Positions 6,707 to 57,104 of a DNA stretch of 64,000 bases are shown here, piece after piece. This DNA comes from Rhodobacteraceae bacterium HLUCCA08 (GTDB lineage: Bacteria; Pseudomonadota; Alphaproteobacteria; Rhodobacterales; Rhodobacteraceae). Under the pieces are notes generated by a model that was not told the DNA's origin, searched no databases, and saw only the letters and a list, made by a program, of their open reading frames with translations. Location: the NCBI GenBank assembly GCA_001314655.1, contig LJSF01000014.1, positions 1 to 64,000 of the forward strand. The letters are read 5' to 3'. The position numbers were made by a program, and so were the translations under genes. Within the stretch, counting starts at the first letter, position 1. Each line of letters opens with the position of its first letter.

Positions 6707-7864
6707 CTAGCCCACCGCCCGCCCGGCCGGGTGCCGGGCCCGGATCGCCAGGGCCAGCGGCGCCGCGATCAGCAGCACGCAGGCGACCCCGGCGAAGGCC
6801 GCCCGCAGGCCGAAGGCCTCGCTGGCGAAGCCCATTCCGACCGGCGCCAGGAAAAACCCCGAAAAGCCCATCACCGCGACCTTGCTGATCGCGTCGGTGC
6901 GGCGATGCGGCGGCACCATCCGCCCGACCAGCGCCAGGCCCAGCGGCCCGATCACCGACACGCCCAGGCCAAGGATGCCGAATCCCAGATAGGCCCAGAC
7001 CGGGGCCGGAGCCGCCGCCGCGATCACCGCGCCGCAGGCCGACAGCATCGAGGCCCAGACGATCACCGTCACCGCGCCGGCCCGATGCGACAAGGCCTGC
7101 CCCGAAAACCGCCCCAGCGCCATGGTCAGGCCCAGCGTCGCCGGCCCCAGCGCGCCCTCGGCCGCGCCGCCCTGCAGCGTGCGCTCGATATGCAGGGCCG
7201 ACCAGGCCTCGACCGTGGCCTCGGACATGAAGGCGACCAGCACCACGCCGCCGCACAGCAGAACCGCCTCGAACGGGAACCGCCCCGGCCCGTCCTGACC
7301 CGGCGCCACCACCGCTTCGGGGTCCAGCCGCAGCCGGGTCGCCAGCAGCAGCGCCAGCACCGTGTATCCGGCGAACATCTGCACCGGCACCGCCCCGGCC
7401 TCGCGCGCCAGCCCGGTCAGGATCGCGCCGATCGCATAGCCCAGCGAAAACAGACCGTGATTGGCATTCATCAGGCTGCGACCGTGGCGCGCCTCGGCCT
7501 CGCTCACCCGCGTGTTCATCAGCACGTCCAGCAGCCCCGATGCCAGGCCCAGCGCCACCATCGCGGCAAAGAAGGCCACCGGGCCGCTTGCCAGGCCCGG
7601 CCCCAGCACCGCCAGCGCCAGCAGGACCGTGGCGACCTGCATGCCGGCGCCGCCCAGCGCCCGGTCAAGCCGCGGCGCCAGCCACATCGAGGTAACCAGC
7701 CCGAAGGCCGATCCCAGCAGAACCGTGCCGAATTGCGCATCGCCCACACCCAGCCCGGCCTTCAGCACCGGCACCTGCGCGGCGAAGGTGCCCCAGAACA
7801 GGCCCAGGGTCAGAAAGGCAAGCGCCGGGCGCGGCGTCGCGGCAAGGGCGGAACGGACGGACAT
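6707..7864 (-). CDS. MFS transporter
   Basis: There are 12 predicted TM segments and an MFS-like G-rich loop. The start is taken at MSVRSALAAT. The ORF track's 5' extension overlaps the intergenic region. Confidence 0.7.
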   Translation of the reverse strand: MSVRSALAATPRPALAFLTLGLFWGTFAAQVPVLKAGLGVGDAQFGTVLLGSAFGLVTSMWLAPRLDRALGGAGMQVATVLLALAVLGPGLASGPVAFFAAMVALGLASGLLDVLMNTRVSEAEARHGRSLMNANHGLFSLGYAIGAILTGLAREAGAVPVQMFAGYTVLALLLATRLRLDPEAVVAPGQDGPGRFPFEAVLLCGGVVLVAFMSEATVEAWSALHIERTLQGGAAEGALGPATLGLTMALGRFSGQALSHRAGAVTVIVWASMLSACGAVIAAAAPAPVWAYLGFGILGLGVSVIGPLGLALVGRMVPPHRRTDAISKVAVMGFSGFFLAPVGMGFASEAFGLRAAFAGVACVLLIAAPLALAIRARHPAGRAVG

Positions 7865-12144: not shown

Positions 12145-12644
12145 TCGGTGCGCCCGCGCGCGCTGACCGCACCGTCCATCAGGTCCTCGATGAAGACCGA
12201 CAGCAATTGCGGCCGGCCGCTGACCCCGGCCTTGCGGTAGATCGCATTGGTCTGTGCCTTGACCGTGCCTTCCGACGTGTCCCGCAGGCCGGCGATTTCC
12301 GCCGTCGTCATGCCCTTGATGGCGAACAGCGCCACGTCGCGTTCGGCCGGGGTCAGGCCCCATTCGGCGAAGCGTTCCTCCATGATCTCCAGGAAGGCGC
12401 CCGAGGCGGCGCGCAGCTGGCTTTCGACATGCGCCGTATGCCGGGTCATGCTGCGGAACAGGACGATGCTGACGGCCACGCCCAGGACCAGCCCTAGCGC
12501 GGCGCCGATCTCGATCACCTCGTGGAACTGCCAGTTGATCGGCGCCAGACCGAACACGCTGACCAGCAGGTTCCACAGGAAAAAACCCGCGCAGGTCACC
12601 TGCACGAGCACCAGGGCAACGAAGAGTCCGCGCCGCGATGTCAT
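12120..12644 (-). CDS. Membrane-anchored LuxR-family transcriptional regulator (two N-terminal TM helices plus a C-terminal LuxR HTH)
   Basis: The N-terminus has two hydrophobic helices. The C-terminal TPAERDVALFAIKGMTTAEIAGLRDTSEGTVKAQTNAIYRKAGV is a LuxR/GerE HTH. Confidence 0.75.
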   Translation of the reverse strand: MTSRRGLFVALVLVQVTCAGFFLWNLLVSVFGLAPINWQFHEVIEIGAALGLVLGVAVSIVLFRSMTRHTAHVESQLRAASGAFLEIMEERFAEWGLTPAERDVALFAIKGMTTAEIAGLRDTSEGTVKAQTNAIYRKAGVSGRPQLLSVFIEDLMDGAVSARGRTDQPEVSSA

Positions 12645-12656
12645 CCAGCCGGCGCG

Positions 12657-13172
12657 TCAATCGTCATCATCATCCTTGTCGTCCTCGTCATCATCCTCGT
12701 CGTCGGCGTCATCATCTTCGTCGTCTTCATCTTCATCGTCGTCGTCGTCGTCGTCATCGTCTTCATCGTCGTCGTCATCGTCGTCATCGTCTTCATCGTC
12801 GTCGTCATCGTCGTCTTCGTCGTCGTCTTCATCGTCGTCGTCGTCTTCATCGTCATCATCCGCACCCGCGTCATCCGCGTCCCCGGGGTCGACCAGGCGC
12901 GGGGTGGGCCTGTCATCGTCGTCGCGGCGATTGCCGCCGATCTCGGTCCAGTAATCGCGCAGGATCACGCCGGTTTCTGGCACCACGACGATCTCGCGAC
13001 GCAGTTCATCCGACCAGGCGACAAAACGGATCCGCCCCAGAAGCGTGCGGCTGACCTCGACGCGGGTGAACCCCTGGTCGTTCAATTGCCGAACGATCTG
13101 CTGCTCAAGGGTCTGGGCCGCGGCCGCCATCGGCGCGAACGCCAGGGACGCGGCCAGCAGAAGCGGTTTCAC
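12657..13172 (-). CDS. Secreted PepSY-like domain protein with a ~100-residue poly-Asp/Glu C-terminal tail (paralog 1)
   Basis: I take the start as GTG (13170-13172), giving (M)KPLLLAASLAFAPMAAAAQT, a signal peptide. The PepSY-like core is QGFTRVEVSRTLLGRIRFVAWSDELRREIVVVPETGVIL. The tail from about residue 125 to the C-terminus is almost exclusively D/E. The ATG at 13331 in the ORF track would overlap the upstream gene by 85 bp and lacks a signal peptide. The start is uncertain. Confidence 0.6.
   Translation of the reverse strand: MKPLLLAASLAFAPMAAAAQTLEQQIVRQLNDQGFTRVEVSRTLLGRIRFVAWSDELRREIVVVPETGVILRDYWTEIGGNRRDDDDRPTPRLVDPGDADDAGADDDDEDDDDDEDDDEDDDDDDDEDDDDDDDDDEDDDDDDDDDEDEDDEDDDADDEDDDEDDKDDDDD
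12660..12890. repeat. GTC/ATC/TTC trinucleotide microsatellite-like tract encoding the poly-D/E tail
   Basis: Long runs such as gtcgtcgtcatcgtcttcatcgtcgtcgtc, with internal 9-18 bp tandem duplications, are seen directly. Confidence 0.8.
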
Positions 13173-13873: not shown

Positions 13874-13989
13874 CCGCGCCTCACATCTGGCCGATCCGGG
13901 TGTCATCGGGAAACGCCCCCGGTCCCGTTCGTGACGGAAACCGGGGGCGCGGTCATGCCTGCATGGCAGGCAGGGGTCGATGGTTCGGG

Positions 13990-14511
13990 TCAGTCGTCGT
14001 CTTCCTCGTCATCATCTTCCTCGTCATCATCTTCCCCGTCATCATCTTCCTCGTCGTCGTCTTCGTCGTCGTCGTCTTCCTCGTCGTCTTCGTCGTCTTC
14101 GTCGTCTTCGTCGTCGTCGTCTTCCTCGTCATCGCGCGCGTCATCATCGCGCTCTTCGTCGTCTTCCTCGTCGTCTTCCTCGTCGTCTTCCTCGTCGTCG
14201 CTCTCGTCACCGTCGACAAAATCCTCGTCATCGGTATCGAATTCGACCCCGGGGCGGGTGTCGTCACCGGCGCGCACACGCTCGATTTCCTGGCTGAGGA
14301 TCGCGCCGGTGGCGGCATCGTAGATCACTTCGACCTTGGTATTGCCGCGGGTCGCCTCGACCTTGATCTGGGACGGGCCGGTATCGATCTCGACGCGGGT
14401 ATAGCCTTCGTCGAGATACCCCTGCGCGAGGCGTTCGGCCAGGCTCTGGGCCAGGGCCGGGCTGGCGCCGAGGGCGAGGATGGCGGTGGTGGTCATCAGG
14501 GTGTTGCGCAT
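13990..14511 (-). CDS. Secreted PepSY domain protein with a ~100-residue poly-Asp/Glu C-terminal tail (paralog 2)
   Basis: The start at ATG 14509-14511 has an AAAGGA RBS. It has the signal peptide MRNTLMTTTAILALGASPALAQS and the PepSY core EGYTRVEIDTGPSQIKVEATRGNTKVEVIYDAATGAILSQE. The tail is ~110 residues of D/E. Confidence 0.75.
   Translation of the reverse strand: MRNTLMTTTAILALGASPALAQSLAERLAQGYLDEGYTRVEIDTGPSQIKVEATRGNTKVEVIYDAATGAILSQEIERVRAGDDTRPGVEFDTDDEDFVDGDESDDEEDDEEDDEEDDEERDDDARDDEEDDDDEDDEDDEDDEEDDDDEDDDEEDDDGEDDDEEDDDEEDDD
13993..14250. repeat. Tandem 12- and 15-bp repeats (gtcatcatcttcctc x3; ctcgtcgtcttc x3) within a GTC/TTC-rich tract encoding the poly-D/E tail
   Basis: Direct tandem units are seen at 14020-14065 and about 14160-14200. 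Confidence 0.8.
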
Positions 14512-15437: not shown

Positions 15438-18362
15438 ATGGCACTGATCCAAGGCGGCACCGGCAATGACAGCCTTGAAGGCACCAATGGCGCGGATCTC
15501 ATTTATGGTTATGGCGGCAATGACGACCTCTTTGGCAGCCCGGGCGGCGACCTCATGGATGGCGGCGCAGGCGATCTGGACACCGCCGACTATTCCGGCA
15601 GTCTGAACGGCGTCACCGTCAACCTCGACACCGGCGTGGGCGATGGCGGCCTGGCCACCGGGGACACGCTCGTGGGGATCGAGATCGTCATCGGCTCGGA
15701 TGCCGGCGACACCCTGATCGGCGACGACAAGGACAACAACCTGTGGGGTCGCGACGGCGACGACACGCTGATCGGCGGGCTCGGCGACGACAACCTGCAG
15801 GGCGAAGGCGGCTTCGACACCGTCGATTACTCCGACAGCGATGCCGCCGTCGAAATCTTCCATATCGACGCGGGCGGCGGCGGTCCCTCGGGCGGCCATG
15901 CCGAGGGCGATTTCCTCAAGGGCATCGAAAAGATCATCGGCTCCGATTTCGACGACACGATCTATGCGCCCTTCTCCGTCACCTGGTCCGAGGCCCATGG
16001 CGGCGATGGCAATGACGCCCTGCACGGGGTCACGCAGGATGTCTCGCTCTATGGCGGCAGCGGCGACGATTACCTGCGCGTCGCTTTCCCAGATGACAGC
16101 TATGTCTATGGCGGCCTCGACCGCGACGAAGTCGATTTCGACGGCGTCTTCGGCGTCACCGCCAATCTGGGCACCGGCATGGTCAACGGCAACGAGCGGC
16201 TGTTCCTGATCGAGGACGCGACCGGAACAGGCAGCACCGACATCCTGATCGGCACCAGCCTGGCCAATACGCTGGACGGCAGCGGCGGCGACGACACGCT
16301 CGAAGGGATGGGCGGCGCCGACCACCTGATCGGCGGCGCCGGTATCGACACCGCGCGCTATACCAGCTCGACCGGGGGCGTGATCGTCGACCTGGAGACC
16401 GGGACCGGCGACGATTTCCATGCCAACGGCGATATCCTGGAAGAGATCGAGAACATCCGCGGCTCCAACCATGGCGACACGCTTCTGGGCGACGCCAACG
16501 ACAACACCTTCTGGGGCCAGAACGGCGACGACACCTTTGACGGGCGCACCGGCGACGACACCTATTTCGGCGGCGCCGGCAACGACCTGGTCAGCTTCGC
16601 CAGCAGCGCCACGGGCCGCAGCGCGTCCCTGGCGACCGATACCGGCGGCACTTTCGACAGCATCGAATCCCTGCAGGGCTCGGACCGGAACGACACGCTG
16701 ACCGGCAATTCAATGGCCAACACGATCACCGGCGGCCTGGGCGACGACACGCTTGCCGGGCTGCAGGGCGCCGACCGGCTGGGCGGCGGCGGCGGCAGCG
16801 ACACCGCCGATTACCGCGCCTCGACCGCCAGCGTCAGCATCGACCTGGTGAACGGCACCGGCACCGGTGGCCATGCCGAAGGCGATGAGCTGCAAAGGAT
16901 CGAGAACGTCCAGGGCTCGGATTATTTCGACGTCCTGATCGGCGACGCCGAGGTCAACCGCCTCTACGGCAATGGCGACAACGACCTGCTGATCGGCGGC
17001 GCAGGGGCCGATTTCCTTTATGGCGGCGACGGGGACGACACGGCGATCTATACCGAGTCAGGTTCCGGCGTGACCGTCGACCTGCAGACCATCGGTGCCA
17101 ATCCCTATATCGGCGCCGGCACCGGCGGCGATGCCGAGGGCGACGTGCTGGACGGGATCGAGAATGTCGACGGCTCCAGGCACGACGATGTCCTGACCGG
17201 CTCCAACGCCGACAACACCCTGTTCGGCGACGATGGCGATGACACTTTCTTTGTCACCGGCGGCCAGGATGTGCTGGGCGGCGGCGACGGCGAGGATACG
17301 GTCGACTTCCAGGTTGCCCCGACCGCGGTCGGCACCACGGTCGATCTCGAGGTCGGCTATTACACGCTGGGGGCCATCGGCCCCAGCCTCGTGAACGATA
17401 TCGAAAACGTCGTCGGCACCGATCATGACGACACGCTCCTGGGCAACGCCTTCGACAACACGCTCGAAGGCGGCGCCGGGGATGACACGATCAGCGGCGG
17501 GCTGGGGCTTGATGTCGCCTCCTATGCCGGCGCCACGGGCGGCGTGTCGGTCTACCTGATGTGGACCGGGCTCGACGTGGGCGGCGGCGCGGGCATCGAC
17601 ACCCTGTCGGGGATCGAGAACCTTCTGGGTTCCGACCACGACGACCGCCTGGCCGGCGATACCGGCGACAACACCCTGCGCGGCCGCGACGGCGACGACA
17701 TCCTCAACGGCAAGGGTGGCAACGACGTGATCCGCGGCGGCGGCGGCCATGACAAGATCACCGCAGCCGACGGCAATGACAGCCTTTATGGCGGCACCGG
17801 CGACGACACGATCTTCGGCCTCGGCGGCGATGACCTGATCGACGGCGGCGCCGACAATGACTGGCTTTACGGCGGCCGTGACGCCGACCTGATCCTGGGC
17901 GGCGACGGCGATGACCAGATCCGCGGCAATATCGGCCATGACGACCTGCAGGGCGGCCTCGGCGACGACGATCTGCGCGGCGGCGCCGGCGACGATACGC
18001 TGTCGGGCGGCGCCGATGACGATTTCCTGGTCGGCGAGAACGGCGAGGACACGCTGGAAGGCGGCTCTGGCGACGACGTGATGATCGGCGGTTTCGATTC
18101 CGTGACCCCGGACGGGCTGCGCGACGTCTTCGTCTACAAGATGCACGGCGGCAACAGCGGCTATGACCGCATCCGCGGCTGGGAGGACGGCATCGACCAG
18201 ATCGACCTGACCGATTTCCAGTTCAATTCCTTCACCATCGACGTGTTCAACCGTGCAACCGACATCGCATCCGGTCTGCGGATCGATTTCGGGCTCGGCA
18301 ACGTGCTGCTGATCGAAGATTTCACCAAGGCCGATTTCGACGCGGGGGACGTGATGATCTGA
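15438..18362 (+). CDS. RTX-family calcium-binding repeat protein (hemolysin-type GGxGxDx[LI]x nonapeptide repeats) with a T1SS-type C-terminal domain
   Basis: 974 aa with dozens of GGxGxD repeats. The C-terminus (DVFVYKMHGGNSGYDRIRGWEDGIDQIDLTDF...LRIDFGLGNVLLIEDFTKADFDAGDVMI) matches the D.FvF...G.D.I.DF..G.D.IDL pattern of type I secretion C-terminal target domains. Confidence 0.85.
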   Translation: MALIQGGTGNDSLEGTNGADLIYGYGGNDDLFGSPGGDLMDGGAGDLDTADYSGSLNGVTVNLDTGVGDGGLATGDTLVGIEIVIGSDAGDTLIGDDKDNNLWGRDGDDTLIGGLGDDNLQGEGGFDTVDYSDSDAAVEIFHIDAGGGGPSGGHAEGDFLKGIEKIIGSDFDDTIYAPFSVTWSEAHGGDGNDALHGVTQDVSLYGGSGDDYLRVAFPDDSYVYGGLDRDEVDFDGVFGVTANLGTGMVNGNERLFLIEDATGTGSTDILIGTSLANTLDGSGGDDTLEGMGGADHLIGGAGIDTARYTSSTGGVIVDLETGTGDDFHANGDILEEIENIRGSNHGDTLLGDANDNTFWGQNGDDTFDGRTGDDTYFGGAGNDLVSFASSATGRSASLATDTGGTFDSIESLQGSDRNDTLTGNSMANTITGGLGDDTLAGLQGADRLGGGGGSDTADYRASTASVSIDLVNGTGTGGHAEGDELQRIENVQGSDYFDVLIGDAEVNRLYGNGDNDLLIGGAGADFLYGGDGDDTAIYTESGSGVTVDLQTIGANPYIGAGTGGDAEGDVLDGIENVDGSRHDDVLTGSNADNTLFGDDGDDTFFVTGGQDVLGGGDGEDTVDFQVAPTAVGTTVDLEVGYYTLGAIGPSLVNDIENVVGTDHDDTLLGNAFDNTLEGGAGDDTISGGLGLDVASYAGATGGVSVYLMWTGLDVGGGAGIDTLSGIENLLGSDHDDRLAGDTGDNTLRGRDGDDILNGKGGNDVIRGGGGHDKITAADGNDSLYGGTGDDTIFGLGGDDLIDGGADNDWLYGGRDADLILGGDGDDQIRGNIGHDDLQGGLGDDDLRGGAGDDTLSGGADDDFLVGENGEDTLEGGSGDDVMIGGFDSVTPDGLRDVFVYKMHGGNSGYDRIRGWEDGIDQIDLTDFQFNSFTIDVFNRATDIASGLRIDFGLGNVLLIEDFTKADFDAGDVMI

Positions 18363-18398
18363 CCCGCGACTCCACGCTCCTCACAACGGAGACTTTCA

Positions 18399-20024
18399 AT
18401 GACCACTTACATCTACAATGCCTTTGAAGCCCTCAAGCATCCGGTTCTGCAAGACACCTATACCCACATCCAGTACCGTGATTTCCAGATCGTCGCGCCC
18501 GAGGACGAAACCGGGTTCACCCTGCTGGACCCTTCGGGCGGCGCCCTGCCCGAGCCGCCCCTCGACGTCGATTCCGAGCTCTATGACCTGCGTTTCGGCG
18601 AGTCCGGGATCTTTGTCGATGTCGACCCGGACCAGGACCTGGTGCGCAGCGTCCGCCTGGACTGGACGCAAGGCGTGGCCGTGAACCAGACCGATCTGCT
18701 GATCTTCGAGGATGACCAGCGCCTGCTGGTGATCGAACTTGGCGGCGACCCCCTGCCCGCCTTCGCCAGCGGCGCCGAATTCACCGGTTTCGTCGGCGGC
18801 GTCATCAGCGCCGACGGCACCGCCGGCGCCCCCTTCGACCCGGGCAGCTTCATTCCCTTCACCTCGCTCACCTCCCTGTTATCCACGACCGAAAACGACG
18901 CCATCTTCGGCACCCCGGCCGGCGACACGTTCTTCGGCGGGCTGGGCAATGACACGATCACGGGCGAGACTGGCAACGATACCCTTTTCGGCGGCGACGG
19001 TGCGGATCGTATCCTCGGCGATGACGGCGACGACACGATCTATGGCGGCGAGGGCTACGATGTTCTCTACGGCGGCGCGGGCGACGATGTCTTCTTCGGC
19101 GGGACCGGCTACAACCAGATGTATGGCGGCGCCGGGAACGACACCTATTTCGGCGGCGATGTGACCGGCGACCAGGTGAGTTTCATCGAGGCCAGCTCCG
19201 GCATTTCGCTTTACCTTGAATTCCCGGATCTCGACCTGGGCGGCGGAATGGGGGTCGACACGTTCTTTTCCATCGACCGCTTTGTCGGCTCGCCCCACGA
19301 TGACCGCATGGTGGGCGATGACAGCTTCAATCGCCTGTTCGGCGGGTCCGGCAACGACATCATCCGGGCGAATGGCGGCACCGGCAATTTCCTCAACGGC
19401 GGCAGCGGTGACGACGATATCCGCGGCTCGGACGGCGACGATACGGTCTACGGCATGCAGGGCCAAGACATCATCGCGACGCTCGACGGCGCCGACGTGA
19501 TCTACGGCGGTGACGAAGCCGACTGGATCTCGTCCGGGCGCGGCAACGACATCGTCCATGGCGACGACGGCGACGACACGATCCGCACCAATCGCGGCAA
19601 CGACACTGCCTATGGCGGCAGCGGCGCCGACGATATCCGCGGCGGCGGCGGCAACGACCTGATCCTTGGCGGCGGCGACGACGATTACCTGGTCGGCGAA
19701 AACGGCGCCGACACGCTGGACGGCGGGGCCGGCGACGACGTGTTGATCGGGGGCTTCGATGCCACCACGCCCGACGGGCTGACCGATACCTTCGTCTACC
19801 GCACCGGCGCGGATGGCGGCGGCTATGACCGCATCCGCGGCTGGGAGGACGGCATCGACGTGATCGACCTGACGGCGTTCGGCTTCACCGATTTCGACAC
19901 CCAGGTCGATCCCCTCGCGACCGACGTCGCGGCGGGCCTCAGGATCGATTTCGGCGGCGGCGACGTGCTGCTGGTCGAGGATTTCACCAGGGCGGATTTC
20001 GACGCCGGCGACGTGCTGATCTGA
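18399..20024 (+). CDS. RTX-family calcium-binding repeat protein (paralog 2) with the same C-terminal domain
   Basis: 541 aa with GGxGxD repeats. The C-terminal ~90 aa align with those of paralogs 1 and 3 (DTFVYRTGADGGGYDRIRGWEDGIDVIDLTAF...GLRIDFGGGDVLLVEDFTRADFDAGDVLI). Confidence 0.85.
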   Translation: MTTYIYNAFEALKHPVLQDTYTHIQYRDFQIVAPEDETGFTLLDPSGGALPEPPLDVDSELYDLRFGESGIFVDVDPDQDLVRSVRLDWTQGVAVNQTDLLIFEDDQRLLVIELGGDPLPAFASGAEFTGFVGGVISADGTAGAPFDPGSFIPFTSLTSLLSTTENDAIFGTPAGDTFFGGLGNDTITGETGNDTLFGGDGADRILGDDGDDTIYGGEGYDVLYGGAGDDVFFGGTGYNQMYGGAGNDTYFGGDVTGDQVSFIEASSGISLYLEFPDLDLGGGMGVDTFFSIDRFVGSPHDDRMVGDDSFNRLFGGSGNDIIRANGGTGNFLNGGSGDDDIRGSDGDDTVYGMQGQDIIATLDGADVIYGGDEADWISSGRGNDIVHGDDGDDTIRTNRGNDTAYGGSGADDIRGGGGNDLILGGGDDDYLVGENGADTLDGGAGDDVLIGGFDATTPDGLTDTFVYRTGADGGGYDRIRGWEDGIDVIDLTAFGFTDFDTQVDPLATDVAAGLRIDFGGGDVLLVEDFTRADFDAGDVLI

Positions 20025-20262
20025 TCGCGCGCCGCGCCCGGCTGGGTTCGACCCGCCGTGGCTGTCGTCCTGTCGCGGCGGTCCTTTTCAAGATCCGCAG
20101 CGATCGGGGCAGCAGCAGCAAGGCGCTGCTGTTCCCCGACCGCGTGGCCAAGGCGCAACGTGACGCGACGCGACCCGATTTGTGGCGCCCGGGCGCACCG
20201 AAACGCCATAGAATCGCCGTTAACCATGATTAACACGCCGTTAACCAAGGAGGCGTGTTTCC

Positions 20263-21945
20263 GTGTTCACCTATCGTTTCGACGGCTATACTTGGGTCGG
20301 GTCGCTGGCCAGTTTCAATACCGTTCTGAACCGGGTCAATTACAGTTTCGACAGCGATGCTGTGACCTATGACCTGACCGATGCGGGCCAGGCGATCCAG
20401 GGCGAACAACTGGTCGATACCGACCTGCCGACGATCACCGCGGATGAGGTCGGGTCGGCCAACAGCTACACTGTCGACCTGGTCACCGCAGGAAACGTGG
20501 AGACCCAGATCCAGGAAGTCTCCTGGACCTATTTCGGCGAAAGCTACACGACCTGGATCCTGTTCAGCCAGGACATGGTGACCGGCCGCGCCTTCCTGAT
20601 GGAGATCGGCGGGGACGAATTCCCCACCTTCACCCAGCGCGCCGACCTGCAGAGCCTGTTCAACACCGCGACCTTCAGCGACCCCAGCCCCGGATCGGGG
20701 TTCGAGCCGGGCGATACCGTCCCGATCGCCGAGATCGCCGAGGTGACGGCCACCGATACCGACGGCAGCGTCACCGACACCCCCTGGGGCGACTGGATCT
20801 ATGCCAGCGACGGCGCCGACATGATCACCGCCGCCAGCGGGACCGAGGCGGATACGCTCCATGCGCTGGATGGCGATGACACGATCACCCTGGGCACGGC
20901 CGGCGGCCTGATCCATGCCGGCGCGGGCGACGACACCGCCACCACCGCCGCGCAATCGGCAATCACCTTCTACGGCGAGGACGGCACCGACCACCTGACC
21001 AGCACCGGCACCGGCCGGGTCTATTTCCTGGGCGGGGCGGGCGACGACACCTTCATCGGCAATGGCGCCGACGACTGGGTCAGTTTCGCCGACCCGAACA
21101 GCTACGGCATCACGCTCTATCTGAAATGGACCGGGATGTTCGACCTGGGCAGCGGCCAGGGCACCGATACCTATGTCGGGATCGAGGGTGTTCTGGGCTC
21201 GGATGGCGACGACCGGATCATCGCCGACAAGGACTCGACCATCGGCATCACCGTGCATACCGGCTTCGGGAATGATGTCGTGAAGGGCACCGAGGGCAAC
21301 GACGTGATCGATGGGCGCGACAGCGACAGCCTCGTGGCTCATGGACGCGGAGGCGATGACATCATCATCGGCAGCGATTTCGGAGATGACACGCTGTTCG
21401 GGTATCACGGCGACGATACGATCGACGGTCTGGATGGCTTCGACTACCTCTATGGCGGCGCCGGCAACGACCTGCTGCGCGGCGGCGAGGGCGACGACAA
21501 CCTGCGCGGCAATCGTGGCAACGACACGCTCTTCGGTGGCGCAGGCCGCGACGACCTGCGCGGCGGTGCCGGCGATGATCTGCTCGAAGGTGGCAGCGAC
21601 AACGATTACCTGTTCGGCGAAAACGGCGAAGACACCCTGCATGGCGGCACCGGCAACGACGTGATGACCGGCGGCTTCGGTGCCGGGGTGCTGGACGGGC
21701 GGACGGATGTCTTTGTCTTCGCCTCGGCCGCCCAGGGCAGCGGCGGTGCCGACCGGATCAAGGATTTCGAGGACGGGATCGACAGCCTGGATCTGACCGC
21801 CTTCGGCTTCGCCAGCTTCTCGCAGATCAGCGCCCTGGCCAGCGATACCGCCTCGGGCATGCGGATCGATTTCGGGGATGGCGACACGCTGCTGCTCGAA
21901 GGGTTCCTGAAGGCCGATTTCGATGCGACCGACGTGTCATTCTGA
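20263..21945 (+). CDS. RTX-family calcium-binding repeat protein (paralog 3); likely GTG start
   Basis: 560 aa. The N-terminal 170 aa are non-repeat, followed by GGxGxD repeats and the conserved C-terminal domain (DVFVFASAAQGSGGADRIKDFEDGIDSLDLTAF...GMRIDFGDGDTLLLEGFLKADFDATDVSF). AAGGAGG lies 10 nt upstream of GTG 20263. Confidence 0.8.
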   Translation: MFTYRFDGYTWVGSLASFNTVLNRVNYSFDSDAVTYDLTDAGQAIQGEQLVDTDLPTITADEVGSANSYTVDLVTAGNVETQIQEVSWTYFGESYTTWILFSQDMVTGRAFLMEIGGDEFPTFTQRADLQSLFNTATFSDPSPGSGFEPGDTVPIAEIAEVTATDTDGSVTDTPWGDWIYASDGADMITAASGTEADTLHALDGDDTITLGTAGGLIHAGAGDDTATTAAQSAITFYGEDGTDHLTSTGTGRVYFLGGAGDDTFIGNGADDWVSFADPNSYGITLYLKWTGMFDLGSGQGTDTYVGIEGVLGSDGDDRIIADKDSTIGITVHTGFGNDVVKGTEGNDVIDGRDSDSLVAHGRGGDDIIIGSDFGDDTLFGYHGDDTIDGLDGFDYLYGGAGNDLLRGGEGDDNLRGNRGNDTLFGGAGRDDLRGGAGDDLLEGGSDNDYLFGENGEDTLHGGTGNDVMTGGFGAGVLDGRTDVFVFASAAQGSGGADRIKDFEDGIDSLDLTAFGFASFSQISALASDTASGMRIDFGDGDTLLLEGFLKADFDATDVSF

Positions 21946-22025
21946 TTTTCACGCTTTGGGAAACGATGAAACCATGCTGGATTGACACGGATCGGGCCGC
22001 CCGGATCGCTCCGGACGGCCCCTTG

Positions 22026-32254: not shown

Positions 32255-32320
32255 CCAAGGGGCCCAAGATCCTTGGCCCAAGGATCTTGCAAGGATTTTA
32301 TATAAAATCCTTGCCCGGCG
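32255..32320. promoter_or_regulatory. Cluster of perfect palindromes (GATCCTTGGCCCAAGGATC; CAAGGATTTTATATAAAATCCTTG) between metK and trmB
   Basis: Both are seen directly. The second has an AT-rich TATATA core, which is unusual in this GC-rich genome. The site could be a bidirectional terminator for metK, an operator or promoter for trmB, or both. Confidence 0.45.
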
Positions 32321-39290: not shown

Positions 39291-40604
39291 TCAGGCGATG
39301 ATTCTCCCCGACAGGGAATTGGGCGCCGAAGCCAGCAGAACCACCGGTGCGATCGTGCCCGGCGCGATTTCGGACGCATCCACATGGACCGCGTGCAGGT
39401 ATTCGGACTTGCCCACCATCTGGCCCGGCAGGCGGCCCGGTTTCTCGAACAGCACCGACACCTCGCGCCCGACCATGGCGTCCTGCAGCGCGCGCTGCTG
39501 TTCGGTGATGCGGGCCTGCAGCCGGGCCAGGCGCTCGGCCGCGACATCCGGCGCGACCTGGCCCGCGCGCTCGGCCGCCGGGGTGCCGGGCCGGGGCGAA
39601 TACCGAAAGCTGAAGGCGGTGCCATAGCCGGCCTCGCGCAGGATCGTCATCGTGTCCTCGAAATCCGCCTCGGTCTCGCCCGGGAAACCGACGATGAAAT
39701 CGCCCGACAGGTGCAGGTCGGGGCGGGCGTCGCGGACCCGTTCGATCAGCCTCAGATAGCTTTCGGCGGTATGTTTGCGGTTCATCGCCTTGAGGATGCG
39801 GTCCGACCCCGATTGCACCGGCAGATGCAGGTAGGGCATCAGCTTCTCGACTTCGCCATGGGCCGCGATCAGGGCATCGTCCATGTCGTTGGGATGGCTG
39901 GTGGTGTAGCGGATACGCTCCAGCCCGTCGATGTCGGCCAGGGCGCGGATCAGCCCGGCCAGCCCGCCCGCATGGCCGTGATAGGCGTTCACGTTCTGGC
40001 CCAGCAGGGTGATTTCGCGCACCCCGGCCTCGACCAGGGCGCGGGCCTCGGCCAGCACCCGATCCGCCGGCCGGCTGACCTCGGCGCCGCGGGTATAGGG
40101 AACCACGCAGAAGGAACAGAACTTGTCGCAGCCTTCCTGCACGGTCAGGAACGCGGTCGGCGCGCGCCGGGCCGTGCCGCGCCCCTTCAGATGCGCGAAC
40201 TTGTCCTCTTCGGGCATGTCGGTATCGACGACCCGTTCGCCGGCCTTCAGCCGCGCCTCCATCTCCGGCAGGCGGTGATAGCTTTGCGGGCCGACCACCA
40301 GGTCGACCATCGGCTGGCGGCGGATGATCTCCTGGCCCTCGGCCTGGGCGACGCAGCCGGTCACGCCGATCTTCAGATCGGGGTTCGCGGCCTTCAGCCC
40401 CTTGTAGCGGCCCAGTTCGGAATAGACCTTTTCCGCCGCCTTTTCGCGGATATGGCAGGTGTTCAGCAGGATCATGTCCGCGTCGTCCGGCGTATCGGTC
40501 GCGACATAGCCCTGCCCGCCCAGCGCCTCGGCCATGCGTTCGCTGTCATAGACGTTCATCTGGCAGCCATAGGTCTTGATGAACAGCTTGCGGGGGCCGG
40601 ACAT
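39291..40604 (-). CDS. miaB: tRNA-2-methylthio-N6-dimethylallyladenosine synthase
   Basis: The UPF0004 N-terminus [12 protein letters not shown] and the radical-SAM motif CSFCVVP are present. Confidence 0.9.
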
Positions 40605-40720: not shown

Positions 40721-41584
40721 ATGCGCTATTCCGACCTTTCCGGCTTTCTCAAACAAGGCAAACCGCTGCTGGCCCGCGGGCCGGTCGCGCTTGTCTTCGT
40801 CGAAGACGCGATCGAGGTCGATTCCACCCTGCGTCATCACCTCGATGCCGGGTTCCGTGCGATCATCGCCCTGGTGCCGACGCATATCGACATCGCCGCC
40901 GACGTGTCCGATCAGATCCACCGGGTCGATTACGACACGCTGGGCGAAGGCGCGGTCGCCGGGGCGCTGAACGCGGTGATGGGCGCGGCCGGGGATATCT
41001 GGCTGTTCTACTGCTTCAACGCCGAATACCTGTTCTACCCGTTCTGCGAACACCGCAGCGTCGGAGAGATGCTGGCCTTCCACACCGAGGAACGGCGCAA
41101 CGCGATGCTGACCTATGTGGTCGACCTGTATGCCGACGACCTGTGGACCTACCCCGAGGCGGTATCGCTGGAGGATGCCCACCTGGACCGGTCGGGCTAT
41201 TACGCCCTGGCCCGCAAGGACAAGTGGAACAACGACATCGACCGGCAGCTGGATTTCTTCGGCGGATTGCGCTGGCGCTTCGAGGAACACATCCCCAAGC
41301 CGCGGCGCCGGATCGACCGGATCGGGCTGTTCCGCAACCGGCCCGGCCTGCAATTCCGGCCCGACCACACCTTCAGCGATCCCGAATACAACACCTATTC
41401 CTGCCCCTGGCACCATTCGCTGACCGCGGCGATCTGTTCGTTCCGCACCGCCAAGGCGCTGAAACGCAATCCCGGCAGCACCTTCGAGATCGACACCTTC
41501 ATGTGGCACAATTCGGCCCCGTTCACCTGGCATTCCCAGCAATTGCTGGACCTGGGGCTGATGGAGCCGGGGCAGTGGTTCTGA
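40721..41584 (+). CDS. Conserved hypothetical protein
   Basis: 287 aa and soluble, with aromatic and Cys/His-rich motifs ([23 protein letters not shown]). No family is recognised. Confidence 0.45.
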
Positions 41585-41614
41585 CGGCGCCTGCCTGAAC
41601 TGGCCTTTCTGACC

Positions 41615-41662
41615 GGGCCTATCTGGCCGGGCCTATCTGATCGGGCCTATCTGATCGGGCGG
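41615..41662. repeat. Tandem ~13-bp direct repeat (CGGGCCTATCTGR x4)
   Basis: The sequence ccgggcctatctggccgggcctatctgatcgggcctatctgatcgggcgg is seen directly, immediately downstream of the RAYT-like gene. Confidence 0.8.
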
Positions 41663-41686
41663 TGGCCCCGTGGCGGGTCGGACGAT

Positions 41687-42154
41687 TCAGGCCGCGACCG
41701 GGTCCGCCCGCGGTGCGCCGCGCCGATGCAGCGACGACCAGGCCCAGTCTTCGGCCCGCTGCACCAGGCCGGCGCGCACCGGCGCGTCCAGAACCGCGCG
41801 GGTCCGGGCGGCCAGCATCGTGTCGGGCACGATCGCTTCCTGCACGGTCGGATCCCACAACGCCGCGCTGTCGCCCGCGCCGCAATGGCGGGCAAAGGCC
41901 GACCGGATCAGCCGCAGCCGTGGCGCCATCGGCGCATCCTCCGGCAATCGGCACAGCAGGTGGAATTCGGACGGCAGGATACAGGCGGCGGCGATCTCGA
42001 ACGGATACCGGTGCCGGGCCAGGGCCACGCAATCGCGCAGCAGGGCAATGCGCCGGACCAGCAGGTCCGAGGCCGGATCGGCCAGGCGCAGGGTCACGGC
42101 GACATGGGTGAGGCGGGGCGTGGAATGCGGGCTCTGGATCATGGCAAGAACCAT
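41687..42154 (-). CDS. REP-associated tyrosine transposase-like (TnpA_REP / IS200-Y1 family), possibly degenerate
   Basis: 155 aa. The HuH-like HLL motif appears in ILPSEFHLLCRLPED. The C-terminus ...AGLVQRAEDWAWSS matches the RAYT C-terminal NPV.AGLV..DY.WSS. The usual catalytic Tyr context (WQ..[FY][HY]D) reads ALWDPTVQEAI here, with no Tyr. Confidence 0.55.
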   Translation of the reverse strand: MVLAMIQSPHSTPRLTHVAVTLRLADPASDLLVRRIALLRDCVALARHRYPFEIAAACILPSEFHLLCRLPEDAPMAPRLRLIRSAFARHCGAGDSAALWDPTVQEAIVPDTMLAARTRAVLDAPVRAGLVQRAEDWAWSSLHRRGAPRADPVAA

Positions 42155-42223
42155 GGGCCCGACTCGGTTAACGCCTGGTGAATCGCGGTTGGTGAATGCC
42201 GGCGGTCCGGGGTCGGGCCGGCC

Positions 42224-42700
42224 TCAGGTCCGGCGCAGGCGGATCACCACGTCGACCTTGGCGATCTCGGCCCCGTCGGGGGCATCGGGCACGCGGGCGA
42301 TTTCCAGTTGTTCGGATGGGGCATCGGTCAGCCGGCCGTCTTCTTCCCAGTAGAAATGCGGGTGGTCGGACATGTTGGTGTCGAAATAGGACCGGGTGCC
42401 GTCGACCGTGATCTCGCGCATCAGACCGGCTTCGCAGAAGGCGCGCAAGGTGTTGTAGACCGTGGCCAGCGACACTTTCTCGCCGGCGGCTTCGGCGGCA
42501 TCGAACAGGCTTTCGGCGGTCACATGGCGGTCATGGCCATCGCCGACCAGAAGGTTCGCCAGGGCAAGACGCTGACGTGTCGGGCGCAACCCGACCCGGC
42601 CCAGCCAGTCCTGGCCGCGCTGTCTTGCGATATCGCCCTGCTTTACGGTCACGACGCTGCGCTCCCCTTTCGTCGGCTTCTGAGGCAGCATATGTGACAA
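42224..42700 (-). CDS. irr: Fur-family transcriptional regulator, probably the iron response regulator Irr
   Basis: It has the Fur fold with a winged helix and an HPH/His-rich region. Divergent placement upstream of fabA-fabB-fabI is the arrangement typical of alphaproteobacteria. Confidence 0.6.
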
Positions 42701-42828: not shown

Positions 42829-43338
42829 ATGTCCGACTACCCCCGCCGGTTCGACCGCGAGGACCTGTTGAAATGCGCCCGGGGCGAATTGTTCGGCCCC
42901 GGCAATGCGCAATTGCCCGAACCGCCGATGCTGATGATGGACCGGATCACCGATATCTCGGGCGATGCGGGCAAACACGGCAAGGGCCACGTGGTGGCCG
43001 AGTTCGACATCACACCCGACCTGTGGTTCTTTGACTGTCACTTTCCCGGCAACCCGATCATGCCCGGGTGTCTGGGGCTGGACGGGCTGTGGCAATTGAC
43101 CGGGTTCAACCTGGGCTGGCGCGGCTGGCAGGGGCGCGGCTATGCGCTGGGCGTCGGCGAGGTCAAGCTCAAGGGCATGGTGCGCCCGGACCGCAAGATG
43201 CTGACCTATCACGTGGATTTCACCAAGGCGGTGCAGACCCGGCGCCTGACCATGGGCGTCGCCGACGGCATCGTCGAGGCCGATGGCGAAGTGATCTACG
43301 AGGTCAGGGACATGAAGGTCGCGCTCAGCGAAAGCTGA
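42829..43338 (+). CDS. fabA: 3-hydroxydecanoyl-ACP dehydratase/isomerase
   Basis: The active-site context ...[17 protein letters not shown]... is present. The start at ATG 42829 has a GGAAGGGA RBS. Confidence 0.9.
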
Positions 43339-43360
43339 GGCATATCGAGGGAGAGCGCTC

Positions 43361-44590
43361 ATGCGCCGCGTCGTCGTCACAGGGCTTGGCATCGTATCGC
43401 CCATCGGAAACACCGCCGCCGAGGTGGATGCCGCCCTGCGCGCCGGAACCTCGGGGATCGAGGCCGTGCCGGACATGGCCGAACACGGCTTTCGCAGCCA
43501 GATCGCCGGCACCGTCAAGATCGACCCGGCCGAACATGTCGACAAACGCGCCCTGCGGTTCATGGGGCCGGGGGCGGCCTATGCCCATATCGCGATGTCC
43601 CAGGCGATCGCCGATGCGGGGCTGGAGGAACGCGATGTCGTCAACCCGCGCACCGGGCTGATCGCCGGCTCGGGCGGGCCCTCCACCTCTGCCATGTTCG
43701 CCGCCCATCAGACCGTGCTGGACAAGGGCAGCCCGAAACGCATCGGGCCCTTCGCGGTGCCGAAATGCATGTCCTCGACCATCAGCGCCAACCTGGCCAC
43801 CGCCTTTCGGATCAAGGGGATCAACTACTCGATCACCTCGGCCTGTTCGACCAGCCTGCACTGCATCGGCGCGGCGGCCGAACAGATCCTGCTGGGCAAG
43901 CAGGACGTGATGTTCGCCGGCGGCGGAGAGGAACTGGACTGGACCCTGTCCTGCCTGTTCGACGCCATGGGCGCCATGAGCTCTCGGCGCAACGACGCGC
44001 CGCAGACAGCCAGCCGCGCCTTCGACGCCGATCGCGACGGCTTCGTCATCGCCGGCGGCGGCGGCATCCTGGTGCTCGAGGACCTGGAGCACGCCCGCGC
44101 CCGCGGCGCGACGATCCATGCCGAGGTCACCGGGTTCGCCGCCACCTCGGACGGCCACGACATGGTCGCCCCCTCGGGCGAAGGCGCCGAACGGGCCATG
44201 GCGCTGGCGCTGGCCACCCTGCCCAAGGGCCGCGCGGTCAGCTATATCAACGCCCATGGCACCTCGACCGGCGCCGGCGACCTCCCCGAGATCGAGGCCG
44301 TGCGCCGCGCCTTTGCCGGCCGCACCCAGCCGCCGGTCAGTTCGACCAAGTCGATGACCGGCCACGCCCAGGGCGCCGCCGGCGCGCTCGAGGCGGTGTT
44401 CTGCCTGCTGATGCTCAAGGGCGACTACATCACCCCGTCGATCAATATCGACACGCTCGACCCGGCGATCGAGCCGGGCGAAATCGCCACCGCGCTGGTC
44501 GAAAACGTCGGCCACGATACGATCATGACCAATTCCTTCGGTTTCGGCGGGACGAACGGGTCGATGTTGCTCTCCAGGTTCCGGGATTGA
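43361..44590 (+). CDS. fabB: 3-oxoacyl-ACP synthase I
   Basis: The active Cys is in ACSTSLH, and the His/His region GHAQGAAG is present. 409 aa. Confidence 0.9.
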   Translation: MRRVVVTGLGIVSPIGNTAAEVDAALRAGTSGIEAVPDMAEHGFRSQIAGTVKIDPAEHVDKRALRFMGPGAAYAHIAMSQAIADAGLEERDVVNPRTGLIAGSGGPSTSAMFAAHQTVLDKGSPKRIGPFAVPKCMSSTISANLATAFRIKGINYSITSACSTSLHCIGAAAEQILLGKQDVMFAGGGEELDWTLSCLFDAMGAMSSRRNDAPQTASRAFDADRDGFVIAGGGGILVLEDLEHARARGATIHAEVTGFAATSDGHDMVAPSGEGAERAMALALATLPKGRAVSYINAHGTSTGAGDLPEIEAVRRAFAGRTQPPVSSTKSMTGHAQGAAGALEAVFCLLMLKGDYITPSINIDTLDPAIEPGEIATALVENVGHDTIMTNSFGFGGTNGSMLLSRFRD

Positions 44591-55417: not shown

Positions 55418-56364
55418 CCGACACCACCTATCAGCACATCCTGATCCTGTTCCTGGGGGTTTGCGGCCTGCTGCTAGCGCTGACCCTGTTCGGCGCCGCC
55501 CTGCGCGCCCGTTACGGCCGTGGCCAGGACAACCCGGTGATCGAAACCTACATGACCCGGGTCCATAGCTGGTGGACCATGGTGCTGCTGTTCGTGCTGG
55601 CGCTGATGCTGGGCCGGGTCGGGGTCGTGCTGCTCTTCGCCTTCGCCTCGTTCTCGGCGCTGCGCGAATTCCTGACCCTGACCTACAAGCGCCAGGCCGA
55701 TCACATCGCCCTCGCGCTGGCCTTTTTCGCGGTGCTGCCGTTGCAATACCTCTTCGTGGGCCTGGGCTGGCAGGCGGTCTATACGGTGTTCATCCCGGTC
55801 TATGCCTTCCTGCTGCTGCCGGTCGTGTCGGCCCTGCGCGGGGATGCGTCGGGGTTCCTGGTGCGGGTGGCCGAAACCCAATGGGGCCTGATGATCACCG
55901 TGTTCTGCGCCAGCCACGTGCCGGCGCTGCTGAACCTGGGCTTTCCCGATTACCCGGCGGACCGGGGCCTGTTGCTGATCGCCTTCCTGGTCATGGTCGT
56001 CCAGTTCGGCGACCTGCTGGATTTCTATTTCGGCCGCCGCCTTGGCCGGACCCGGATCGTGCCGGGCCTGTCGCCCAAGACCTGGGAAGGCGCGTCCCTG
56101 GGCGTCGCCAGCGCCGCACTGATCGGCGGCGCGCTGGCCTGGCTGACACCGTTCCCGGTCTGGGGCGCGATGGCGATGGCGGCGGTGGCCTCGGCCACCG
56201 GCCAGGCCGGCAACCTGGTGATCGCCGCGATCAAGCGCGACCGCGGCGTGCGCGACTGGTCCCACCTGATCCCCGGCCAGGGCGGTTTCGTCGACCAGAT
56301 GGACAGCGTGATGTTCGCCGCCCCGGTCTTCTATCACCTCACCGCGCTCGCCTGGGCCAGCTGA
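55414..56364 (+). CDS. CDP-diglyceride synthetase (CdsA)-family integral membrane protein
   Basis: It is polytopic. SPKTWEG and the C-terminal PGQGGFVDQMDS match the CTP-transferase signature. The start ATG overlaps the previous stop as ATGA. Confidence 0.7.
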   Translation: MTDTTYQHILILFLGVCGLLLALTLFGAALRARYGRGQDNPVIETYMTRVHSWWTMVLLFVLALMLGRVGVVLLFAFASFSALREFLTLTYKRQADHIALALAFFAVLPLQYLFVGLGWQAVYTVFIPVYAFLLLPVVSALRGDASGFLVRVAETQWGLMITVFCASHVPALLNLGFPDYPADRGLLLIAFLVMVVQFGDLLDFYFGRRLGRTRIVPGLSPKTWEGASLGVASAALIGGALAWLTPFPVWGAMAMAAVASATGQAGNLVIAAIKRDRGVRDWSHLIPGQGGFVDQMDSVMFAAPVFYHLTALAWAS

Positions 56365-57008
56365 CGCCGCCGCATCAGCGCCACGACACCGAACGCACTG
56401 GCCAGAAGCAGACCGCCCGCCGGCAGCGGCACGGGCGCGGGGGTGGTGATCCGGATGTCGGTGAACTGGAATTCGTATTCGATCCCGAAGGCCGACCAGA
56501 ATACTCCGCCCGTCGTACCCTGGTAATAGGCGTCGTTCATGTAGCGGTAAGACCCGGTCAAAGGATCCATTTCGGCCTCGTAGACGTAACAGCAGCCATC
56601 GGTCCTTCGATAGCGAAAGCTGCGACTCGCCTCGTCCAGCGACGCCTCAAGGTAGTTGCCCCATTGGCAGAAGTCCCGCTCCGTACCCGTGAGGTAGCAG
56701 TCCAGCGAATATTGGTTGTCCAGGTCCAGTTCATCGGGGTGGAAATACAAGGCCAGTCGCCCGGAACGGGATTCTCCCCTCTCCAAACCGCCGATATTGA
56801 AGCCCAGTTCAGCCAAGGAGAACCGGCGCGCATTGAAATCGACGTTTTCGTAGGTTGCCTGATCATAACTCTCGTCGAGGAACAGAGACCAGTTCGACAA
56901 TGTCGACGTGAACGTCGCCTCGTAGACCAGCGTCGCCGCGTCGGACTTCGCACCGAACAGCGTCACGGCGGCGCCCAGGACCGCAGTCAAAACTCCAAAC
57001 CGACCCAT
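56334..57008 (-). CDS. Secreted protein with a C-terminal VPLPA-CTERM-type sorting signal
   Basis: A signal peptide (MGRFGVLTAVLGAAVTLFGA) is present. The extreme C-terminus is PAPVPLPAGGLLLASAFGVVALMRRRQ, that is a VPLPA motif, a TM helix and an Arg cluster. Confidence 0.65.
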   Translation of the reverse strand: MGRFGVLTAVLGAAVTLFGAKSDAATLVYEATFTSTLSNWSLFLDESYDQATYENVDFNARRFSLAELGFNIGGLERGESRSGRLALYFHPDELDLDNQYSLDCYLTGTERDFCQWGNYLEASLDEASRSFRYRRTDGCCYVYEAEMDPLTGSYRYMNDAYYQGTTGGVFWSAFGIEYEFQFTDIRITTPAPVPLPAGGLLLASAFGVVALMRRRQLAQASAVR

Positions 57009-57104
57009 ACCGCCCCCTACAGCGTTAACCATTCATTAACGAATCTTAACAAGCCGGGGCGGGTCAGGCAACGAAACCGGGGCGTCCAGGTAAAGGAAAG
57101 GCAC

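Follow-up and report, generated by a model that had tools for sequence, protein, structure and literature searches.

A vertically inherited RAYT descendant in Rhodobacteraceae that has lost most of its active site and is probably kept as a non-catalytic protein

The closest described relatives of the gene considered here are the tyrosine transposases associated with repetitive extragenic palindromes (REPs), called RAYTs or TnpA_REP, which are known as domesticated, single-copy, vertically inherited transposases (PMC5581495) and which, according to surveys, share the catalytic motifs HuH (histidine-hydrophobic-histidine) and Tyr (PMC3479197, PMC6006769). In the E. coli enzyme (YafM, PDB ID: 4ER8; class 2, HuH Y1) the active site is composed of the HUH motif H59-M60-H61, with Y115 as nucleophile and N119, H123 and E161 coordinating the metal (PMC3479197); the class-2 signature is Y---NP, in which N119 is a metal ligand (PMC6006769), and Y115F is the standard catalytically dead mutant (PMC8266576). 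It has been argued in one preprint that RAYTs persist only through the joint benefit of the RAYT and its REPINs; if there were a benefit without REPIN activity, RAYTs would lose REPIN duplication and the REPINs would go extinct (bioRxiv 10.1101/2021.07.10.451892). The gene analyzed here lies on the minus strand at 41687..42142 of a 64,000-nt stretch of Rhodobacteraceae bacterium HLUCCA08 (contig LJSF01000014.1, positions 1 to 64,000), referred to throughout as the window. The best explanation of the data, held with more confidence than doubt though well short of certainty, is that it is a vertically inherited RAYT descendant whose nuclease and strand-transfer chemistry has been lost, and that selection maintains its product in a non-catalytic capacity.

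The initial annotation had described a RAYT-like protein of 155 aa, and the corresponding open reading frame (ORF; 41687..42154, minus strand) is confirmed. The protein scores 66.2 bits against NCBIfam NF047646 (REP-associated tyrosine transposase), below the curated cutoff of that family (80 bits), and matches no Pfam family even at E<=1, including PF01797 (Y1_Tnp); its sole sequence match in the PDB is E. coli TnpA_REP (4ER8, E=1.5e-11). A database record with the identical protein reads 'MAG: transposase [Rhodobacteraceae bacterium HLUCCA08]'. An AlphaFold (AF2) model prepared from 40 homologues (pLDDT, the predicted local distance difference test, 80.5; pTM, the predicted template modeling score, 0.73) shows the HUH/RRM-like fold, helix D lying across the sheet, as judged from the model and from Foldseek, whose best match is 4er8_A (E=4.3e-9, TM 0.68) and whose next matches are IS200/IS605 transposases (E 1e-6 to 1e-5). 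E. coli TnpA_REP is thus the best match by both sequence and structure, has the same length, and shares the C-terminal PV.AGLV...DW.SS, present here as the AGLV...DWAWSS that the initial annotation had pointed out. On this sequence and model evidence the gene is a RAYT/TnpA_REP by descent and fold. The TnpA proteins of IS200/IS605 elements (PF01797; IS608, ISDra2) have the RRM-like HUH fold in common with it; unlike them, the window gene has no Pfam match and no set of catalytic residues, is syntenic across genera, and does not lie in an insertion sequence, having neither flanking hairpins nor a second copy in the window.

Residues were mapped by HMMER alignment to 4ER8, whose chain numbering matches that of the published structure (PMC3479197). 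In the numbering of the 155-aa ORF, E. coli H59-M60-H61 corresponds to E63-F64-H65, Y115 to A120, N119 to A124 and H123 to A128; four of the five active-site residues H59, H61, Y115, N119 and H123 are replaced, and only the equivalent of H61 is left. The Y-x-x-x-N-P segment, directly before PV.AGLV, reads A-V-L-D-A-P-V-R-A in the window protein. The HuH motif had been taken as retained in the form HLL, but the alignment gives E-F-H, the apparent HLL being the second His followed by two Leu. The absence of a catalytic tyrosine had been noticed correctly, but its site had been sought in the WQ region, whereas Y115 lies in Y-x-x-x-N-P; the alignment to E. coli TnpA_REP gives Ala at the Y115 equivalent. 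The proposal of a domesticated or inactivated RAYT therefore holds in a stronger form than was put forward, with four of five active-site residues lost and not Tyr alone. With E-F-H, with Ala for Tyr115, Asn119 and His123, and with a score below the family cutoff, the window protein is unlike the RAYTs described. In E. coli the REP hairpin is contacted by R46, R78, K81, K82, Q83, T85, H86, K91 and R97; the equivalents of R46, R78 and H86 are all Arg in the window protein, but the base-specific K82 and R97 are not kept, and the specificity of any binding must therefore differ from that of E. coli.

A word-indexed search returned 42 close homologues (43-82% identity, mostly from Octadecabacter and metagenome-assembled genomes, MAGs). 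In these the position of the first HuH His is occupied by near-invariant Glu (rarely T or K) and that of the second by His or Gln, with Gln in about half; the Tyr position holds Phe, or A, L, R, W and once Y, and the Asn position is invariant Ala. When 40 of the sequences are compared, 23 columns are invariant and a further 18 nearly so, among them LLRDCVAL, F83, H86, W96, APV.AGL and DW.SS, and six Arg are near-invariant among the same 40 homologues. Scanning a genome collection with a peptide pattern of the clade gave nine loci (Octadecabacter, Salibaculum, MAGs), the window's own genome not being among them. A profile search of 1.84 billion representatives gave 3594 matches at E<=1e-3 and 246 at E<=1e-10; about two-thirds of the best 150 matches are without the HuH/Tyr/Asn set, and intact H-u-H/Y/N proteins first turn up around E=1e-19. 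When the search was seeded with more distant degenerate members, 756 proteins were found at E<=1e-10, belonging, where the organism is named, to Yoonia, Loktanella, Sulfitobacter, Albidovulum, Ascidiaceihabitans and unclassified Rhodobacteraceae/Paracoccaceae, with active-site states (HuH/Tyr/Asn positions) of KxH/L/A, HxH/F/A, VxH/M/A, VxH/L/S, HxH/Y/A and similar.

Scores against NF047646 are 190-196 bits for intact RAYTs, 140-178 bits for degenerate proteins of Yoonia, Sulfitobacter and Ascidiaceihabitans, 98 bits for one further protein (P0055) and 48-66 bits in the window's clade, whose members give 48-58 beside the 66.2 of the window protein, and Pfam Y1_Tnp is matched by intact proteins only (P0043, P0101, P0108). 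Six proteins scoring 140-178 bits (P0198, P0205, P0219, P0279, P0280, P0290) lack the catalytic Tyr, the Asn and often the first His; NCBI nevertheless lists them as 'REP-associated tyrosine transposase', a name frequent among the 756 proteins too. In a midpoint-rooted neighbor-joining tree of 218 relatives the window protein falls in a clean clade of 52 members, none of them intact. These residue states bear on the idea that the protein is a still-active single-strand DNA nuclease or transposase working through non-canonical residues, with the 14-mers of a neighbouring tandem array as a substrate replacing REPs, an idea that deserves very little credence. The fold is indeed retained, one HuH His is left, and the clade has its own new invariant residues (R-D-C in LLRDCVAL, and H86), but the clade has no conserved Tyr at all, Gln replaces the second His in about half of its members, and a Tyr-to-Phe change is what defines the classical dead mutant; the array itself, considered below, also speaks mostly against it.

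The chromosomal slot of the gene is ordered fabB-fabA, divergent from irr, then the RAYT-like gene, a convergent gene of 287 aa, and miaB. In the window, the syntenic anchors are fabA-fabB (42829..44590, plus strand, ORFs, divergent from irr) and miaB (39291..40604, minus strand; TIGR01574 479.7 bits); irr, which encodes a Fur-family iron response regulator (42224..42691, minus strand; NF045678 210.8 bits, NF045677 208.3 bits), adjoins the RAYT-derived gene upstream on the same strand, and the conserved 287-aa gene (an ORF at 40721..41584, plus strand) converges on it. This order is held in the window's organism (10 assemblies), in L016 (an 82%-identical relative), in two Octadecabacter species and a Great Salt Lake MAG, and also in L017, L028, L030, Yoonia algicola, L034 and L035 (L numbers denote individual loci); FabA and ketoacyl-synthase Pfam families were found in all orthologous loci, and the irr orthologue in L006 is annotated as a 155-aa FUR gene. 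Comparison of orthologue neighbourhoods thus gives the same slot (irr, the RAYT-like gene, the convergent 287-aa gene, miaB) across many Rhodobacteraceae. The conserved synteny of the RAYT-like gene in at least 15 loci supports vertical descent, as is known for RAYTs at fixed chromosomal slots (PMC5581495). The sole RAYT-like copy away from the slot is that of Sulfitobacter sp. LCG007. The 287-aa gene invariably separates the RAYT-derived gene from miaB, at the same position in at least 15 loci, and is 95% identical over 108 aa to its counterpart in L016; it has no match in the NCBIfam search or in the PDB sequence search, and no Pfam family is recorded for the orthologous 287-288-aa genes in the gene tables of relatives.

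The proteins found in this slot have the states HxH/Y/A (L035), HxH/F/A (L034), KxH/L/A (Yoonia), SxH/H/A (L028), ExQ/F/A (Octadecabacter), ExH/F/A and ExH/A/A (window); judged by these residues, they are a graded decay series at one vertically inherited locus. Replacement of Asn by Ala or Ser is common to nearly all orthologues, and since the whole slot series is without the Asn and His123 ligands, their loss was probably the earliest step of the decay.

Decay of the active site has not been accompanied by decay of the reading frame. In Octadecabacter, Salibaculum, Yoonia and many MAGs this slot holds an intact ORF of similar length, even though most lineages have diverged so far that their synonymous sites are saturated. 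For the sole unsaturated pair, window versus L016, dS (synonymous divergence) is 0.34 and the ratio of nonsynonymous to synonymous divergence (dN/dS) is 0.31, compared with 0.14 for the irr fragment and 0.08 for the 287-aa gene; as far as this one genome pair goes, selection on the RAYT-derived gene is purifying but relaxed. A decaying relic, that is, an inactivated RAYT pseudogene without function that happens to be open by chance, would account for the loss of all catalytic residues but one, for the fastest nonsynonymous rate of the three adjacent genes, and for NF047646 scores that descend to 48-66 bits in the window's clade; it is disfavoured all the same, and looks quite improbable, given an intact frame of similar length in the same slot across genera with synonymous sites saturated, the 23 invariant and 18 near-invariant columns, a dN/dS below 1, and an upstream box conserved at fixed spacing. 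A described parallel, the RAYT of Neisseria gonorrhoeae (bioRxiv 10.1101/2021.07.10.451892), is similar in that RAYT function was lost together with loss or decay of REPs/REPINs, but differs in being frameshifted, whereas the window lineage keeps frame, residues and box long after loss of the chemistry.

REP-like hairpins distinguish the window's lineage from its less-decayed relatives. Elements of the form GTA(A/G)GGTG-stem-loop-stem-CACCTTAC flank the less-decayed orthologues L032-L035, and GTA(G/A)-tagged hairpins likewise flank orthologues in Yoonia, Sulfitobacter and MAGs, a feature shared with RAYTs proper. The hairpin GGTGGGTT..AACCCACCTTAC lies on both sides of the gene in L034 (3900-3925 and 4519-4545) and L035 (1-20 and 610-635); GGTGGATC..GATCCACCTTAC lies upstream of the gene in L032 and again after miaB (4920-4950 and 7753-7790), and GTAGGGTGCGGCAGGCCGCACCTTAC directly follows the stop codon in L033 (5541-5560). 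The relatives' hairpins are also written GTAAGGTGGGTT..AACCCACCTTAC. The L034/L035 type is a dispersed family, found in at least 120 metagenome stretches (including L036-L115), many of which have 2-4 copies in doublets. Because less-decayed orthologues carry flanking dispersed REP-like hairpins, the ancestral state of the locus is, from these sequences, a REP-associated RAYT, and the window's clade is a later state without chemistry or REPs. These REP-like hairpins adjoin degenerate RAYT-like genes whose proteins are without Tyr and Asn. Beside the window gene there are no hairpins within 130 nt upstream or 70 nt downstream; no repeated hairpin family occurs among the ~20 perfect hairpins of the 64-kb window, and the window contains no dispersed non-coding repeat and no second RAYT-like gene copy. 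The window gene is unlike known RAYTs in having no REP hairpin beside it or within 64 kb; that REPs are missing, as initially annotated, is correct for the window's lineage, with less-decayed orthologues still flanked by them.

The spacers between irr and the RAYT-like gene have diverged except for one element, TT(C/A/T)A-N7-TTAA(C). In the window this CtrA-box-like element is TTCACCAGGCGTTAAC (TTCA-N7-TTAAC; 42182..42167, minus strand), 40 to 24 nt before ATG 42142. Counted from the start codon, the box begins 39-40 nt upstream in all but one of 19 distinct loci, including the non-syntenic Sulfitobacter copy, and stands at the same position in L004, L016, L019, L021-L025, L027, L028, L030 and L032-L035; because it is present at the non-syntenic copy, the element belongs to the RAYT-like gene and not to irr. 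No fetched locus contains more than one match to TTCA-N7-TTAAC, and wherever the gene start is known the match shortly precedes the RAYT-like gene. The protein probably begins at ATG 42142 (151 aa) and not at ATG 42154, to which the ORF reaches (155 aa), because the Met at 42142 (M5) is invariant across 33 aligned homologues, the upstream ATG is out of frame in L016, and the distance of the box is fixed only with respect to ATG 42142.

In L034 and L035 the box agrees at every fixed position with TTAA-N7-TTAAC, which has served as the CtrA-site consensus for Caulobacter and Dinoroseobacter (PMC4046655), and in the window TTMA-N7-TTAAC has four matches against 0.05 expected, an enrichment of ~80-fold over shuffles; the matches away from the RAYT-derived gene precede other start codons by ~30 nt. 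Two of the window's other boxes are perfect. One (20230-20245, plus strand) lies 33 nt before the GTG of an ORF with RTX-like (repeats-in-toxin) repeats (20263..21945); the other is contained in the palindromic TTAACCATTCATTAAC (57024-57040, both strands) at the start of a 232-aa ORF (56334..57032, minus strand), whose VPLPA-type C-terminal tail resembles a sorting signal. Likeness to CtrA-regulon promoters (PMC4046655, PMC11264516) lies in a 16-nt box at a fixed promoter-proximal position that is perfect in two orthologues; the window box is unlike them in its first half-site, TTCA. Should the box instead be an operator of another regulator (for example a relative of the LexA-like GTTC-N7-GTTC) or of the protein itself, which is unlikely but retains some weight, then a first half of TTCA and not TTAA in most loci, and a reading of GTTC-N7-GTTA in several, would be explained. 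The invariant part of the box is nevertheless its second half, TTAAC(C), two orthologues have the perfect CtrA consensus, perfect boxes elsewhere in the window sit ~30 nt before start codons, and the final C of a LexA-type half-site is never present.

CtrA-activated promoters mostly have their site at -35 (PMC11264516); as the ATG follows the centre of the box by ~32 nt and no Shine-Dalgarno sequence is evident, the simplest reading is a leaderless or very short-leader mRNA, and the RAYT-derived gene probably has one, as far as sequence can suggest it. Scans for sigma-70 promoters and terminators close to the gene gave nothing relevant. A CtrA-type promoter of its own would drive the gene without dependence on irr, and this bears on the alternative of a functional partner of Irr, co-transcribed with irr and acting in iron or haem regulation. 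In nearly every lineage examined, irr is indeed the immediate upstream neighbour of the gene and has the same orientation, the gap being 48-98 bp in most loci. The partnership is nonetheless improbable, since the gene has its own conserved box, kept in Sulfitobacter sp. LCG007 where irr is not adjacent, the gap to irr is 213 bp in L030, REP-like hairpins lie between irr and the gene in L032 and L034, and the whole block from fabA through irr, the RAYT-like gene and the 287-aa gene to miaB is syntenic, so that the adjacency may simply be inherited. Under the reading preferred here, a retained non-catalytic RAYT descendant, adjacency to irr would indeed be inherited and not an operon requirement.

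On its other side the gene is followed by a 14-bp tandem array (41580..41660; Tandem Repeats Finder: period 14, 5.8 copies, 80% matches), which fills the 102-bp gap between the convergent genes and begins inside the stop codon of the 287-aa gene. Four copies of a 13-bp unit had been reported initially; the period is 14, the exact core CGGGCCTATCTG occurs three times (41614, 41628, 41642) and nowhere else in the 64-kb window, and the fourth copy shares only CGGGC. Degenerate copies continue backwards into the neighbour's stop codon: on the strand of the RAYT gene the array consists of two identical CCGATCAGATAGGC followed by progressively diverged units as far as GCCGTCAGAACCAC, a unit in which the convergent 287-aa gene has its final two codons and its stop. 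The 141-bp 3' region including the array is identical in nine independent assemblies of the window's organism. Of 17 orthologous junctions, 15 are without the array; in L016 the junction measures 44 bp and has no repeats, and elsewhere it measures 9-38 bp. Both strands fold no better than shuffles (z -1.2 and -0.9), and the array has no Rfam match and no hairpin. A metagenome scan with two adjacent array units gave no match, but missed the window locus too and is uninformative.

By its sequence, then, the array is a local, lineage-specific product of slippage or tandem duplication, for which the stop codon of the 287-aa gene was the seed, and not a REP surrogate. The tie between repeat and RAYT that had been supposed at first does not stand: the array is not at most orthologous loci, has no hairpin and was seeded by the 3' end of the neighbour, and the repeat core is unique to this locus within the 64 kb. 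A role as REP substitute or structured RNA was rejected, given folding like that of shuffles and no Rfam match, and a likeness between ATAGGCCCG and GTAGGCC, with which REPs of E. coli end, was dropped, there being no palindrome. For an active enzyme with the array as its substrate, the one favourable observation at this junction is an independent 14-bp array in L035, whose protein keeps HuH and Tyr; on the other side stand the junctions without an array, the lack of a hairpin or significant fold, and a copy number identical in nine assemblies. The L035 array (642-697) consists of TAAAACCGCCGGCC x3 with period 14, in a unit sequence unrelated to the window's; it was copied from the end of the L035 287-aa gene itself, TAAAACCACTGGCC (stop codon and last codons), and no explanation beyond slippage is at hand. 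The 14-bp array of the window would accordingly be separate from the protein and not its substrate.

The window has further features. Several large ORFs at ~15600-21950 are full of 27-nt-periodic, GGxGxD-type (RTX-like) repeats and include three paralogous C-terminal segments spaced ~1.66-1.92 kb apart. Two long tracts (12595-12972 and 13931-14305) are made up of GTC/GAC-type triplet and 12-15-nt repeats and would encode acidic, Asp/Glu-rich low-complexity regions if the minus strand were read. At 32265-32314 two perfect palindromes, CAAGATCCTTGGCCCAAGGATCTTG and GCAAGGATTTTATATAAAATCCTTGC, abut one another and have AAGGAT arms in common, the latter being unusually AT-rich for the genome.

Taken as a RAYT descendant kept without its chemistry, the gene probably has a use for the host that involves no cutting. 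The protein may still bind structured single-stranded DNA or RNA through its retained basic helices B and C, without cutting, and the benefit to the host would no longer involve REP/REPIN propagation. A fuller version, in which a whole RAYT lineage of the Roseobacter group now binds structured single-stranded nucleic acid without catalysis, under the control of CtrA, and has outlived its REPs, is offered only tentatively and is a good deal less secure than the loss of chemistry and retention by selection. Several points weigh against these readings. The C-terminal 30 residues, which include the conserved APVRAGLV..DW.SS, are modelled at a pLDDT of 41-53, the C-terminal third of the model being of low confidence, and nucleic-acid binding and function are deduced from sequence and model. 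Nonsynonymous evolution is 3-4 times faster than in the neighbours, so that constraint is relaxed, and the unsaturated dN/dS comes from a single genome pair. The crude neighbor-joining tree is compatible with either single or repeated inactivation of the degenerate groups. The first half of the box is TTCA and not TTAA in the window lineage, where CtrA dependence is assigned by motif alone, and the REP/RAYT survey covered 64 kb, so that a REP family or a second, intact RAYT may lie elsewhere.

In an incomplete search of the literature, no conserved catalytically dead RAYT lineage or inactive HUH Y1 derivative was found described, nor was a RAYT-derived gene described in CtrA studies of Rhodobacterales. 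A practical point concerns annotation: members from Yoonia, Sulfitobacter and Ascidiaceihabitans pass the NF047646 cutoff and receive the name 'tyrosine transposase' without having the tyrosine. The host role of RAYTs is an open question. The locus fits the RAYT-REPIN loss that theory predicts, yet the gene is still conserved, which points to a second role independent of REPINs. If the fuller version, with the CtrA-controlled binder, is true, this would be the first natural case of a RAYT scaffold from which the host benefits irrespective of REPIN propagation, and the locus would provide a graded natural series that runs from HuH and Tyr with REPs to no catalytic residues and no REPs. The order of these events can be tested on the orthologues, which include intermediate active-site states and differ in whether REPs flank the gene, and the CtrA-like box offers an experimental handle in tractable roseobacters.

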